A DNA stretch of 32,000 nt from Rhodobacter capsulatus SB 1003 (GCF_000021865.1 NC_014034.1:2250001-2282000); one strand, 5' to 3'; counted from the first letter of the stretch, positions 5,791-12,749 are shown. The notes: generated by a model not told the origin, from the sequence alone. Numbers and translations are program-made.

Positions 5791-5833
5791 AGTGAGGCCC
5801 CGAACGCCATTGGTCCGAGTGAGCGGGCCGAAC
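5791..5833 (+). repeat. Hairpin mini-insertion, family A (core CGCCATTGGTYCRAG)
   Basis: AGTGAG-GCCCC-GAA-CGCCATTGGTCCGAG-TGAGC-GGGCC-GAAC. It sits at the frame break between AWLLGCN and TVQRIFQIKGW. Confidence 0.75.
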
Positions 5834-6353
5834 GACGGTGCAGCGGATCTTTCAGATCAAGGGCTGGCAGGTGCGCAAGCGCGCCATCGGCATGCGGCCG
5901 CGGATCGAGGCGGTGCCTTCGGTCGCCACCGCACCGAACGAGCGCTGGTCGACGGATCAGGCGCGGGTCTGGACCGGCAAGGACGGCTGGGCGTCGCTCG
6001 CCTTGGTGATCGATTGCCACAGGCGCGAACTCCTGAGCTGGCACCTGTCGCGCTCCGGCAAGGCCACGACCGCCAGCGCCGCGCCTGAACATGCCCTGAT
6101 CCGCCGGTTCGGAACGCTTGGCCGGGTCAACCGGGCGTTCCTGCTGCGGTCTGACAATGGTCTGATTTTTACCAGTCGCCACTTCACGGCTCTGGTGCGC
6201 AGCTATGGCCTGAAACAGGAGTTCATCACCCCGCATTGCCCGCAACAAAACGGCATGGTGGAGCGCGTCATCCGGACGCTCAAGGCGCAATGCATTCACC
6301 GCCACCGCTTCGAGAGCATCCAGCACGCCAACCGCGTCATCGGCGACTGGATC

Positions 6354-6394
6354 GTTCGGCCGCTCTCTCGGACCCATGGCGATCGCGGCCTCAC
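6354..6394 (-). repeat. Hairpin mini-insertion, family A
   Basis: The reverse complement is GTGA-GGCCGC-GAT-CGCCATGGGTCCGAG-AGA-GCGGCC-GAAC. It sits at the frame break after VIGDWI in OrfB. Confidence 0.75.
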
Positions 6395-6651
6395 TCAACA
6401 ACCACCGCCGCCCTCATCAGGCCCTTGCCGGGCGACGCCTGTCGAGGCATTCAGATTAGCGGCTTAACTTGAGCAGATTCAGATGGGGCAATACACGCTC
6501 GGCATGTTGCCCGCCACGGCCCGGTGCTTAGGTGAAGGCCACCCCAGGCGGCGCCGTGCCGCCCCAAGGGCGGTCGTCGCGGGCCAGCGCCCAGAAGTAT
6601 CCGGTTTTGGTTTTCCTGGCCCCCGGATCGAGCACCGGGGCACGCGTGTTC

Positions 6652-6695
6652 TTCGGGGCTTACGCGGCCCCATCAGGGCCACGGTCCCCTCGAAC
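6652..6695 (+). repeat. Hairpin mini-insertion, family B (TCGGGGCTTACGCGGCCCC...)
   Basis: TTCGGGGCTTACGCGGCCCCATCAGGGCCACGGTCCCCTCGAAC. It sits at the frame break after ...STKLFM in TnpC. Confidence 0.7.
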
Positions 6696-6973
6696 TCCAT
6701 GAAGAGCTTGGTTGACCGCTTCAGATCGGCAATCAACGCGTCAAACACCGGCCGGAGTTCAAAGGCAGCCCGGCCGACCCAATCGGCCAGTGTGGAGCGG
6801 TCGAGATCGATGTCCTGCCGGGCGTAGATCTGCGCCTGGCGATACAATGGCAGGTGATCGGCGTATTTCGAGACCAGCACATGGGCAACCAGGGCCTCAC
6901 TTGGCAGGCCCCCCGGGATCAGCCGATCCGGGGCGGGCGCCTGCACCACGCCATCGGTGCAGGACCGGCAGGC

Positions 6974-7014
6974 GTTCGGGCCCTCCTTCGAACCAATGGC
7001 AGTCAGGCCCTCAC
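6974..7014 (-). repeat. Hairpin mini-insertion, family A
   Basis: The reverse complement is GTGA-GGGCC-TGACT-GCCATTGGTTCGAAG-GA-GGGCCC-GAAC. Removing it restores RRPK(Y)ACRSC in TnpC. Confidence 0.8.
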
Positions 7015-7100
7015 TTGGGCCGACGCGTGACGAGGACGCGGAACTGCGCGAGAATGATGTCGAGCCGTTCCGAGACATCTTCGCCGATGCGATGCAGAGC

Positions 7101-7138
7101 GAGCCAGGGTGCGCCACTGGTTCAAGAACCATGGCGAG
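7101..7138 (+). repeat. Hairpin mini-insertion, family A (CCATTGG/CCAATGG subfamily)
   Basis: GA-GCCAGGG-TG-CGCCACTGGTTCAAG-AA-CCATGGC-GAG. It sits between ...LTCACG and LHRIGEDV of TnpC. Confidence 0.7.
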
Positions 7139-10770: not shown

Positions 10771-10811
10771 CCTCGCCATTGGGCTTGAACCAATGGCGCC
10801 ACAATGGCTCG
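10771..10811 (-). repeat. Hairpin mini-insertion, family A (CCATTGG/CCAATGG subfamily)
   Basis: The reverse complement is CGA-GCCATTG-TGG-CGCCATTGGTTCAAG-CC-CAATGGC-GAGG. It lies just after ...LVADVMLD of OrfA, at the same site as the copy at 12481-12521. Confidence 0.8.
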
Positions 10812-11083
10812 ATCCAGCATCACATCCGCCACCAGGCGCTTCAGCTTCGCGTTCTCGGCCTCGAGCTGCTTGAGCCGATTGGCGTCCGAAAGGTCCATCC
10901 CGCCATACTTGGCCTTCAGCTTGTAGAACGTCGCAGGGCTCAAACCGTGCTTACGGCAAAGCTCGGAGGTCGGCAAACCGGCCTGCTGCTCTTTGATCAT
11001 CCCGATAATCTGTTCGTCGGGGCTTACGCGGCCCCATCAGGGGCCACGGTCCCCTCCTCATCGGTGAAACGGCTCTTTCGCAT
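10812..11083 (-). pseudogene. IS407-group OrfA (copy 1), interrupted after codon 7 and at its 3' end
   Basis: MRKSRFT / DEQIIGMIKEQQAGLPTSELCRKHGLSPATFYKLKAKYGGMDLSDANRLKQLEAENAKLKRLVADVMLD. Confidence 0.85.
11017..11060 (+). repeat. Hairpin mini-insertion, family B
   Basis: TCGGGGCTTACGCGGCCCCATCAGGGGCCACGGTCCCCTCCTCA. TCGG recurs at 11061-11064. Removing the insert restores ttcaccgacgaacag (FTDEQ). The copy in IS407 copy 2 lacks this insert. Confidence 0.85.
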
Positions 11084-11150
11084 TCGTCTGCTCCTTAAGG
11101 TTGGGCAGACTCTACATCAGATTGAGGGAACTTCCGGGAGGCAGGTCACA

Positions 11151-11596
11151 TCGAAAAGGAAATCCGCGGCCGTGACCCGGCCACGCGCGTGAAAATCCGG
11201 CAGAGGTTCTCCAGGCCGATCGTCGAGGCCCTGCGGCCTTGGCTCGAGGGCTGCCTGCAGCAGCTTTCCTCGACGAACGAACTGACGCGGCACATCCGAT
11301 ACGGTCTGAAACGTTGGGCGGGGCTGACCCGGTTCCTGGACGACGGTCGGCTCGAAATGGACACCAACGGCGTCGAAAACGCGATCCGTCCGATTCCGCT
11401 GACGAGGAAAAACGCGCTCTTTGCGGGCTCCGATGACGGGGCGAAAACCTGGGCCCGCATCGCCTCGCTGATCGGCACCTGCCGCCTCAATGGCATCAAC
11501 CCCGAGGCCTATATCGCCGCCACGCTCCGCAAGATCCTAGACCAGCACATGCAAAGCGATATCGCCGCGCTGATGCCCTGGAACTTCCGAGAATAG
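11151..11596 (+). pseudogene. IS66 TnpC, C-terminal fragment
   Basis: The sequence is as described for the copy B fragment. The 5' part is missing because the IS407 copy 1 end abuts at 11150. Confidence 0.8.
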
Positions 11597-11634
11597 TCAA
11601 GCCGCTAGGCAAAGGGTGATGAGCGGGCGCTTAC
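11151..11634 (+). mobile_element. IS66-family right-end fragment (tnpC 3' part plus terminal repeat), copy B
   Basis: The TnpC C-terminus is IEKEIRGRDPATRVKIRQRFSRPIVEALRPWLE...TNGVENAIRPIPLTRKNALFAGSDDGAKTWARIASLIGTCRLNGINPEAYI. It ends with the IS66-type terminus ...GGGCGCTTAC at 11634. Confidence 0.8.
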
Positions 11635-11813
11635 GAACAGATACACCGCGCCATTGTAGGGATCGTGGCCGAGCACGTTCTGCACGACCAGCGCGAGCCC
11701 CGCGTGTTCCTCGGGCTTACGCGGCCCCACCGGGGCCACGGTCCCTCGTCATTGCGGAAGTCCACCGGACGCGTCGCCAGATAGGCGCGGGTGACCCCGC
11801 CCGGCAGGATCAC
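11635..11813 (-). pseudogene. IS66 TnpB, N-terminal fragment with a family B insertion
   Basis: MILPGGVTRAYLATRPVDFRK / EHAGLALVVQNVLGHDPYNGAVYLFVS, then truncated. Confidence 0.75.
11711..11751 (+). repeat. Hairpin mini-insertion, family B
   Basis: TCGGGCTTACGCGGCCCCACCGGGGCCACGGTCCCTCGTCA. Removing exactly this segment restores gacttccgcaag|gaacacgcg (DFRKEHA). No target duplication is visible. Confidence 0.85.
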
Positions 11814-12271
11814 GACGATGTCTCCCGCAGCGCCGCAACCACCCGGCCAAGATGCGCCGCGTCGAAGCCGGTCGGCACAAGGATCCGCACCCCGACAATC
11901 TCCAGCTGCAAGCTGGTCTCGGGCCGATCACCCGGTACGGCGCCCCCGCTCACCACGATCGGCACAAGCCCGAGGGCATCATCCTCCGGCATCGGCAAAA
12001 GCCCCTCGCGCGCAGCCCGACGCCAGGCATGCAATTGCGGCGCCGAAACCCCATGACGCCGCGCCACGTCGGCCACCGTCACCCCGTCCCGAAAGGTCTC
12101 GAGCACCATTGCCGCCTTCACATGTTCGGGCCAGCGACGGCGACCGGTCGGCCCCGTCACGATGTCGATACGCCCGGCGTATCCAGGATCATCACTGTGA
12201 GAACTTACGTAAGTTTGTATGTCGCTATCCATCGACGCCTCCGTTGTTACGGGCGTCATCTCGGATGACAT
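11810..12271 (-). CDS. IS66 TnpA (Orf1)
   Basis: RRRWPEHVKAAMVLETFRDGVTVADVARRHGVSAPQLHAWRRAAREGLL...LVPIVV...LQLEIVGVRILVPTGFDAAHLGRVVAALR matches the canonical Orf1 layout. The stop overlaps the tnpB start. Confidence 0.7.
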   Translation of the reverse strand: MSSEMTPVTTEASMDSDIQTYVSSHSDDPGYAGRIDIVTGPTGRRRWPEHVKAAMVLETFRDGVTVADVARRHGVSAPQLHAWRRAAREGLLPMPEDDALGLVPIVVSGGAVPGDRPETSLQLEIVGVRILVPTGFDAAHLGRVVAALRETSS

Positions 12272-12335
12272 CGAGCCTCAAGCAACGAGGGCGATGGCCG
12301 GGCGCTTACGGATCTCCGGATTGTCGGGCGGGTGT

Positions 12336-12749
12336 TCACGCCGCACCGTCTTCGGATCGACACCGATCAGGACGCAGGCCCGGCGTTGAGAGATCGGATG
12401 CCCCTTCATCGCCCGCAGCACCGCGTCCCGCCGTTGCATCGGCGTCGTCAGGGCTTTCCCAAGAGATCCTTCGGCACGACCCTCGCCATTGGGCTTGAAC
12501 CAATGGCGCCACACTGGCTCGATCCAGCATCACATCCGCCACCAGGCGCTTCAGCTTGGCGTTCTCTTCCTCAAACTGCGTCAGCTGCTTGGCATCGGAC
12601 AAATCCATCCCACCATACTTGGCCTTCAGCTTGTAGAAGGTCGCGGGGCTGAGCCCATGCTTCCGGCAAAGCTCGGAAGTCGGCAAACCGGCCTCCTGCT
12701 CTTTGATCATCCCGATGATCTGCGCCTCGGTGAACCGTCTTTTCCTCAT
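12336..12749 (-). pseudogene. IS407-group OrfA (copy 2) with a family A insertion before the frameshift window; the orfB N-terminus follows in another frame
   Basis: MRKRRFTEAQIIGMIKEQEAGLPTSELCRKHGLSPATFYKLKAKYGGMDLSDAKQLTQFEEENAKLKRLVADVMLD / insertion / VVPKDLLGK. The OrfB frame then reads ALTTPMQRRDAVLRAMKGHPISQRRACVLIGVDPKTVRREHPPDNPEI. Confidence 0.8.
12481..12521 (-). repeat. Hairpin mini-insertion, family A (CCATTGG/CCAATGG subfamily)
   Basis: It differs from 10771-10811 at 1 of 41 positions and occupies the same position in OrfA. Confidence 0.8.

Follow-up and report, generated by a model that had tools for sequence, protein, structure and literature searches.

Small palindromic repeats of the REP, RPE and SDR kinds are common in bacteria, and the movement of most of them is unexplained. 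Rickettsia palindromic elements (RPE), described by Ogata and co-workers in 2000, are reportedly about 100–150 bp long and found only in Rickettsia, and the small dispersed repeats (SDR) of Nostoc, reported by Elhai and co-workers in 2008, are said to be cyanobacterial, 21–27 nt long and inserted with loss of host nucleotides rather than with duplication. HUH and tyrosine enzymes recognize their substrates, which include integron attC sites, IS200/IS605 ends and rolling-circle origins, as folded strands, in which pairing counts for more than the sequence of the stem and unpaired bases are the determinants. Bypass elements are short GC-rich hairpins inside open reading frames (ORFs) of functional genes: the element of T4 gene 60 is one, and the mitochondrial "byps" were reportedly described by Lang and co-workers in 2014. 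Such elements form a coding gap that breaks the frame or holds a stop, and they need matched take-off and landing codons. The closest published class to the element reported here, family A, is that of the CGTC repeats of alphaproteobacteria, a branch of the REPs (repetitive extragenic palindromes). REPs carry a conserved unpaired GTAG/CGTC tag, are mostly extragenic and form head-to-head dimers; those with CGTC predominate in alphaproteobacteria, include some intragenic units and have no dedicated transposase (PMC3733652, PMC3116915). CGTC REPs have conserved stems of 8–9 bp and loops of 4–5 nt, and RPE-4 and RPE-6 have been linked to CGTC repeats (PMC3733652). Family A was recognized in a 32,000-nt stretch of Rhodobacter capsulatus SB 1003 (NC_014034.1:2250001-2282000, hereafter the window) and is apparently undescribed: it acts like REP, RPE and SDR elements yet lacks the defining features of each.

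We consider it probable that family A consists of very small non-autonomous mobile hairpin elements that act at the DNA level and are specific to Rhodobacterales. Ten copies lie in the window, all between 5483 and 12524, in a graveyard of insertion sequences (IS) of about 7 kb (Table 1). A scan for the core CGCCATTGGTYCRAG at up to two mismatches gave nine matches, including the copy at 10447, against a mean of 0.49 in shuffled sequence (0 of 100 shuffles reached nine); the tenth copy (core at 5499) came from a looser core scan. A covariance model, R1, run with filters off, returned 10 copies and no more at E ≤ 3.6e-7; E was 0.065 for the match that followed. A preliminary description made from the window had listed eight copies; all eight are real, with closing stems (GGCCC/GGGCC, GGCCGC/GCGGCC and the rest) as it gave them, down to the single mismatches at 12481 and 7101, and the two at 5483 and 10447 had been overlooked. 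Copies 10769 and 12479 lie within a 250-nt paralogous IS3 repeat (88% identical) and therefore represent one insertion inherited twice, the second having come with its IS3 fragment, so that the window holds nine independent insertions rather than ten. A literature search for the core string returned no bacterial reference, its single match being an unrelated C. elegans genome-editing paper, and keyword searches of the literature returned no description of family A.

Column statistics, covariation and fold counts were taken from the R1 alignment of 123 copies outside the window (121 distinct sequences, 100 loci, numbered here with an L). The consensus reads xy-GA-stem-CGCCATTGGTCCGAG-stem'-GA-y'x', with a stem of 7–10 bp (often GCCATTGTC) and an overall length of 41–43 bp. 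Near-invariance of the 15-nt core, noted earlier from eight copies, held in this larger set, where the columns of this loop are 86–100% conserved. The flanks, previously given as "(G)TGA...GAA(C)" or "GA...GAG", proved to be a conserved tandem G.A/A.G mismatch (GA opposite GA in 87/123 copies) closed by two complementary pairs. These outer pairs, xy/y'x', are GT/AC in 40 copies, GC/GC in 25, AT/AT in 17, TC/GG in seven and CT/AG in four; they are complementary, that is inverted, and not direct repeats. The base 3' of the element is G in 106/123 copies, and the base 5' of it is G (64/123) or A (45/123). Predicted folds have an outer helix, an internal loop of GA (2x2) and, inside the 15-nt loop, a small GCC/GGU hairpin. 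Loop and GA/GA are conserved as sequence, and the stem and the two closing pairs only as pairs. One subclass has TC in place of the 5' GA, forming a perfect palindrome (GTCGCC..GGCGAC) that sits in G-runs of another intergenic repeat. Family A shares with REPs and REPINs the short GC-rich hairpin, the high copy number and, likely, a folded single strand as substrate. It differs from them in its long invariant loop and free stem, where REPs have a short variable loop and a conserved stem, and in that its copies are single hairpins, mostly within transposase and phage ORFs, rather than extragenic doublets. GTAG is absent from the columns of the 123 copies, and CGTC is found solely where the palindromic subclass has GACG, as its complement.

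Covariation of the stem, the central claim of the preliminary description, is real and became very strong once further copies were collected, by the covariance model and by tests free of alignment. Standard pairs are formed by 92.5% of stem cells versus 65.9% after shuffling (0/500 shuffles as high), cells changed on both sides number 299 versus 75, and the covariation score is 0.61 versus 0.146. Double-sided changes occur at all 11 pairs, the pair types include 37 extra ones, and sliding the 3' partner by 1–3 columns as a control left only 25–45% pairing. A model-fitted alignment leans to its own structure, hence two alignment-free checks were added: complementarity of a copy's own arms was 8.24, versus 6.31 for arms swapped between copies, and among copies picked by the exact 15-mer core alone, pairing of mirrored positions exceeded every one of 500 shuffles for 11 of the 14 distances. 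The variety of stems extends to GGCCGC, GACCGGTTC, GCGGGCATG, GGGATTG and GCCAGTG, and two pairs, both fully compensated, separate the elements of L017 and L023. Simple descent of all copies from two founders, on which the earlier claim would have fallen, is excluded by the 121 distinct sequences and the extra pair types.

That copies are true insertions is clearest in the IS66 of the window. With an intact IS66 (ISRel8) as tblastn query, TnpC and TnpB are broken exactly at family A copies, and all four copies are missing from intact relatives: in a three-way DNA alignment with the IS66 of Rhizobium etli and that of Gemmobacter (84% identical), copies 6972, 7097, 7742 and 7912 add a net 37, 36, 38 and 36 nt, respectively. 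At 6972, GT[GA..GA]AC stands where the reference IS66 has ATAT; 7912 takes the place of conserved "DF" codons; and strain L005 has CGCCATTGG at the site of 7742. For copy 6352 the paralogous IS3 in L004 provides the empty site, with about 4 nt versus 41 nt. A flank-matching search extended this to about 35 filled/empty pairs in at least eight unrelated gene families. The empty allele has 4–5 nt (mode 5) where the filled one has about 41 nt from xy to y'x', often a net addition of 36 nt; the target follows the pattern R-NNNNN-G (purine before, G after), and no target-site duplication was found in these pairs. The cleanest pair is in IS21 istA (about 93% identity, both members from one 90%-identity protein cluster), where empty GGCA-CCAC-CGCGG contrasts with filled GGCA-GCGAGCC..GGCGAG-CGCGG, a net gain of 36 nt. 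As in miniature inverted-repeat transposable elements, the hairpin arms reach the element ends; unlike in these, 4–5 nt of the empty site are lost and the flanking dinucleotides are inverted. By eye the ends resemble neither those of the IS3 (TGTGACCTGCC...) nor those of the IS66 (GTAAGCGCCCGC...) of the window, although no systematic search was made. SDR are reportedly likewise very small hairpin-containing mobile repeats within genes and within one another, but differ from family A in host, length and sequence.

Insertion is also recurrent and site-selective, as judged by filled and empty alleles at shared sites in diverged genes. In gpA-type terminases, site A (just after the Walker B "FLDE") is filled in L017 and L023 and empty in L015 and L009, while site B ("ETG(D/E)-AP-DW") is filled in L015 and L018 and empty in L017, L023 and L009. 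L015 and L023 are mutually closest (90–95% identical) yet unlike at both sites, and L018, though more distant, has at the very nucleotide used in L015 a 42-nt copy identical to the one there. The IS3 OrfB site "VW..DITY" (GTCTGG-NNNNN-GACATCAC) carries the element, each time with another stem, in L024, L046, L049 and L088, and nearer relatives are empty; this identity comparison uses only consistent values, artefactual values of 100% from short overlaps having been left out. An orfA site (ILRK-AS-AYF) is filled in L105, L146 and L075. Many targets lie within short palindromes (CGGCG-AAG-CGCCG, which is that of terminase site B, GTCGAC, GCCATGGC, TGCA), which we report as a lead only. In the filled terminase alleles the first codon of the element, GAG (Glu), occupies the position of a conserved Asp after Walker B ("LDE-x-D"), so an acidic residue is kept there.

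Several other accounts of the insertion site were considered and rejected. Target-site duplication is at odds with the inverted flanking dinucleotides (GT..AC, CT..AG) and with the 4–5 extra nt of empty sites. Insertion at the centre of a palindromic tetranucleotide, with the target supplying xy/y'x', fails, as xy/y'x' find no match in the nucleotides of empty sites. Copying of stems from the flanking target was ruled out for 6352 and 6972, one case (L004, 12262) being ambiguous in that the target CAATGCGGGG resembles the 3' arm. Neither stem nor xy correlates with the choice of target: one master copy occurs at unrelated targets, and different stems occur at one target. Separately, copies occur in clusters of mixed orientation with spacings of 100–600 nt. 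Clusters of three copies within 200–450 nt were seen in L020 (9483–9919), L030 (3396–3601) and L116 (1265–1535), which points to hopping over short distances or to a strong preference for certain target regions.

The 123 further copies come from many Rhodobacterales genera (Tateyamaria, Paracoccus, Rhodobacter, Roseovarius, Rhodovulum, Leisingera, Cereibacter and others) and their prophages; L004 contributes three with new stems such as GCCATCG/CGATGGC. A search of species-representative genomes with one exact 15-mer listed at least 120 loci, with about 85 real copies, almost all in Rhodobacterales; the matches in other phyla among the loci listed have no stems and look like chance. The master copy, which recurs identically in the unrelated contexts of capsid, terminase, IS21, IS66 and IS3 genes, matched only Rhodobacterales plasmids among 72,556 plasmids and none of 50,697 GenBank phage records, and 15 prophage-like contigs of IMG/VR were picked up by a pattern scan. 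Pfam families in ORFs flanking 133 copies are mainly those of transposases and phage genes: IS3 (HTH_Tnp_1, HTH_21, rve), IS5 (DDE_Tnp_1), IS66, IS256, IS21 and IS91 transposases, gpA terminase, portal and GTA protein. Intergenic copies (L060, L068, L094, L108, L128 and others) sit in the G-run of a widespread repeat, "...TTCATCTGGCCnAAAATATCCCGGGGGG" plus a "GGGGCAGAGCCCCC" hairpin. A perfect copy in L082 (4173–4217), a metagenome-assembled genome labelled Acetobacteraceae and so outside Rhodobacterales, has two paralogous empty sites on the same contig and may reflect horizontal transfer or mis-binning.

Of the intragenic copies, 25 lie in sense orientation and 8 in antisense, and the window copies split 6 to 4. 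Seven independent copies in intact phage ORFs with high third-position G+C are all in frame and in the same phase, GAG-...-C-GCC-AYY-GGT-YCR-AG, with peptide readings such as EPLSAIGPRTMA and EAGSATGPSDPPN; the carriers include terminase (two sites), capsid and other phage ORFs. All six frames are open in 41% of copies versus 10% of shuffles, and NCBI annotates one IS21 istA as intact with an antisense copy inside it (..GTA[LAIVLGPMADNGS]LPARP..). Family A resembles RPE in these respects: both are palindromic selfish repeats of alphaproteobacteria that sit in frame in genes, here in the phage ORFs and istA just named, are tolerated as peptide segments without disrupting the ORF and have no known associated transposase. 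Family A is far shorter than RPE, has its matches in Rhodobacterales, shares no sequence with the Rickettsia RPE families and has a layout, invariant loop of 15 nt and free stem, that is not theirs; we know of no RPE for which loss of 4–5 nt of target has been described. Unlike bypass elements, copies in intact phage ORFs add 36 nt in frame and stop-free, so ordinary read-through suffices. In the annotation of Rhodobacterales, many transposase and phage genes that look "frameshifted" or carry odd extensions are accounted for by family A, and its 12-residue insertions persist beside catalytic motifs (for instance directly following Walker B in terminase and directly preceding the DDE aspartate in IS3), which bears on protein evolution. 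Its copies could also be markers of strain history.

We propose that the folded single strand would be the form recognized by a putative trans-acting enzyme, for which the loop would be the recognition site. Loop and GA.AG mismatch would then be the sequence determinants and the stem only a scaffold, so that any complementary stem would be allowed. In the filled/empty pairs, the hairpin of about 41 nt replaces 4–5 nt of target between a purine and G without duplication. The common variants are stop-free in every frame, which may be why copies survive within ORFs as 12–13-residue insertions. Copies are concentrated where DNA is dispensable, in the transposase genes of IS, in genes of prophages and in intergenic hairpin repeats, and the dispensable IS graveyard would account for ten copies in 7 kb of the window. 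By analogy with HUH and attC substrates, an invariant loop and GA/GA with a free but paired stem look like the signature of a folded-strand substrate, with pairing that matters and unpaired candidate determinants. There are differences from these systems: family A has no attC R/L boxes (its ends are xyGAGCC / GGCGAy'x', against RYYYAAC / GTTRRRY), no IS200/605 tetranucleotide target and no such enzyme linked to its copies, and its neighbours are transposases and phage genes rather than cassettes. To our knowledge, HUH and attC systems do not delete 4–5 nt of target. Among small repeats whose movement is poorly explained, family A offers clean handles: the invariant loop, the G.A tandem mismatch, the covarying stem, dozens of filled/empty pairs and the reproducible 4–5-nt replacement. 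An enzyme that read only the loop and the shape would add to the cases in which DNA is recognized by its structure.

Five points weigh against this reading. No transposase or other enzyme could be linked to the element, and no Y1/HUH or RAYT family is among the 25 most frequent Pfam families beside 133 copies (flanks of about 400 nt scanned). Replacement of 4–5 nt of target is not known from any characterized transposition chemistry, neither staggered-cut nor IS200/605. The island that carries the window copies, located through its IS110 protein in five assemblies (including GCA_052362895.1, GCA_052362635.1, GCA_052362925.1 and GCA_053669655.1), showed no presence/absence polymorphism of copies among the five near-identical strains that share it. 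The sense bias and the single reading frame could mean a role at the RNA or protein level, and are not fully explained by tolerance alone. Finally, pairing of the stem could be kept by correction at the DNA level rather than by selection for recognition.

A new kind of site-selective "coding hairpin" parasite is a tentative and clearly less likely reading: some single-stranded DNA or reverse-transcription mechanism would swap 5 nt for a 41-nt hairpin (a net 12 codons), with a preference for codon phase and purging of stops. If so, these traits would let the element colonize and persist in functional genes that belong to other mobile elements, for example those for terminase, capsid and transposase, and the recurrent insertions at one nucleotide in diverged genes would mean recognition of target structure (short palindromes) rather than sequence.

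Somewhat more doubtful is a mobile DNA element whose stems are complementary because a change in one arm of a quasi-palindrome is copied onto the other, by template switching within the molecule or by correction of mismatches; template-switch mutagenesis at quasi-palindromes occurs in bacteria. It touches the earlier claim that covariation implies selection on a fold, of which the covariation stands but is no proof of selection on its own, as arm-to-arm correction would give the same pattern. Stems are compensated even in the dead pseudogenes of the window, where no local selection is expected, and in some copies, such as those in L004 and L010, the 5' arm GCCATCG, the GCCATCG of the core and the 3' arm CGATGGC agree in a way that looks like copying between repeats. 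Correction should, however, also have reached the GA/GA mismatch, which stays unpaired in the majority noted above instead of being "corrected" to TC/GA, and single mismatches remain uncorrected (12479, 7097, and a GCCTTTG/CAATGGC stem seen six times). Very different stems around one invariant loop need differential constraint, not correction alone.

A functional cis-acting RNA on host mRNAs, kept by selection for translation, IS3 frameshifting or processing and stability, seems quite improbable to us. The preliminary description had left open whether the hairpin works as DNA or as RNA; DNA fits better, given insertions in dozens of unrelated genes and in both orientations. The sense bias among intragenic copies speaks for RNA, as do copies at the end of IS3 orfA by the frameshift region (directly after A-AAA-AAG in L075, also L105 and L146) and the terminase site B copy, 42/42 identical between L015 and L018 with flanks differing by about 18–20%. 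Yet a quarter of intragenic copies are antisense, and occurrence in both orientations within genes argues against a transcript-specific function; those of the window split 6 to 4, the hosts are many unrelated genes and also intergenic G-run repeats, and no Rfam match was found even at E ≤ 10 beyond a noise match. The slippery site and helix of L075 are separated by only 1–2 nt, too short for classical -1 frameshift stimulation, and the identical site B copies are equally explained by recurrent insertion of a master copy, documented at other sites. A stimulator of IS3 frameshifting as such was rejected on the L075 spacing and because other copies lie elsewhere.

Least probable by far is that family A is not mobile and consists of fragments of a few ancestral sequences spread by duplication of carrier IS and phages, for although 10769 and 12479 were duplicated along with their IS3 fragment and most hosts are themselves mobile, this is already contradicted by the filled/empty comparisons, by the identical master copy in its unrelated contexts and by the polyphyly of copies at one site.

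Known RNA families gave no alternative identity. At gathering score nothing in Rfam 15 overlaps family A copies, ARAGORN calls only tRNA-Met in the window, and at E ≤ 10 Rfam gives only the noise match RF_site8 (5477–5540, E = 7.9, 19.3 bits versus a gathering score of 43). A tRNA-like origin was considered in view of T-loop-like TTCAAG/TTCGAA variants and a partial likeness to tRNA-Met, and was rejected, the commonest core being TCCGAG, with no ARAGORN or Rfam tRNA call. By inspection there is no resemblance to group II intron domain V, attC, or IS3 and IS66 ends.

The preliminary description also saw two mutually exclusive folds, a claim that is only partly borne out. An alternative fold is possible in 37/123 copies, whose core has at positions 2–8 the sequence of the 5' arm (GCCATTG or GCCATCG) once more, so that the core can compete for the 3' arm; in copy 7097 this pairing is the predicted minimum-energy fold. 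Predicted energies are -12 to -15 kcal/mol for the alternative, -13 to -18 for the outer stem alone and -14.5 to -23 for the minimum-free-energy fold, which makes the alternative 0.2–6 kcal/mol weaker than the outer stem alone and 1.6–11 weaker than the minimum-free-energy fold. Copies with GC-rich stems (e.g. 5790, 6352 and 6972) cannot form it, and it is inconsistently kept as stems vary, mixed cases being common. On these predictions it is best taken as a subfamily feature and not a conserved switch, and it is perhaps a trace of the element's origin.

Table 1. Family A copies and other features of the window (R1, covariance model score).
Feature	Position	Strand	Stem or sequence	Score	Context
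Family A	5483..5528	+	GTGA-GGGGCG-agcg-TGCCACCGGTTCAAG-cg-CGCCCC-GAAC	34.7 bits, E=3.6e-7	IS3-type orfA (DUF1153) remnant; fold predicted
Family A	5790..5835	+	GGCCC/GGGCC, flanks GTGA..GAAC	45.8 bits	Exact core match; its TGA ends IS3 transposase ORF 5529-5795
Family A	6352..6396	-	GGCCGC/GCGGCC	59.3 bits (member of model seed)	Antisense within IS3 rve ORF
Family A	6972..7016	-	GGGCC/GGCCC, core TGCCATTGGTTCGAA	52.4 bits (member of model seed)	IS66 TnpC
Family A	7097..7141	+	GCCAGGG/CCATGGC, one mismatch	39.8 bits	Antisense in IS66 TnpC; reads RHGS*TSGAPWL
Family A	7742..7788	-	GCCATTG/CAATGGC, core CGCAATTGG	40.2 bits	IS66 TnpB
Family A	7912..7955	+	GCCATTGG/CCAATGGC	48.9 bits	Antisense in IS66 TnpB
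Family A	10447..10493	+	GA-GCCATGG-gaa-CGCCACCGGTCCGAG-tga-CCATGGC-GAG	40.1 bits	rve fragment
Family A	10769..10814	-	GCCATTG/CAATGGC	45.1 bits	IS3 orfA, inside direct repeat D1 (10771-11020)
Family A	12479..12524	-	GCCAGTG/CAATGGC, one uncompensated mismatch	37.4 bits	D1 copy 12481-12730; paralogue of 10769
Family B	6651-6694		TTCGGGGCTTACGCGGCCCCATCAGGG(G)CCACGGTCCCCTCGAAC, 44 nt		Insertion in IS66 TnpC
Family B	~11016-11060
Family B	~11709-11750
Small hairpin-like insert	~5709-5735		GAAAAGGCCCCAGTGGGGCGTTTTC		Inside IS3 ORF
Palindrome	~10047-10067		AACGATCCCCCGGATCGTT		Flanks rve fragment
Palindrome	~10630-10650		AACGATCCCCCGGATCGTT		Flanks rve fragment
tRNA-Met	3547-3621
tRNA-Met with tyrosine integrase	3547-4746				Integrase follows tRNA-Met
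IS110-family transposase	8696-10018	+			Intact
NACHT/AAA-like ATPase, 766 residues	12916-15216	-			Near end of IS graveyard
Cobalamin riboswitch	24440-24656	+		123.7 bits	Rfam RF00174

Other small insertions lie among the family A copies. Family B is a second mini-element, present three times; at 6651–6694 it is a true insertion when compared with intact IS66, with inverted flanks of the GTTC..GAAC type. With the further hairpin-like insert at about 5709–5735, one IS3 copy holds at least three kinds of mini-insertion. The two copies of the palindrome are about 580 nt apart, and their sole database signal is a noise-level Rfam match (BASRCI153, E = 0.81).

The window has a G+C content of 64%. 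Its tRNA-Met and tyrosine integrase form the left edge of a genomic island and are followed by about 9 kb of degraded insertion sequences, in the order IS3, IS66, IS110 and further IS66 and IS3 fragments, and the graveyard ends near the ATPase gene. The IS110 transposase is identical at a second locus (L004) of one assembly, in other assemblies and in metagenomes, and so looks recently active; its closest plasmid copy, from Rhizobium rosettiformans, is 93.6% identical.

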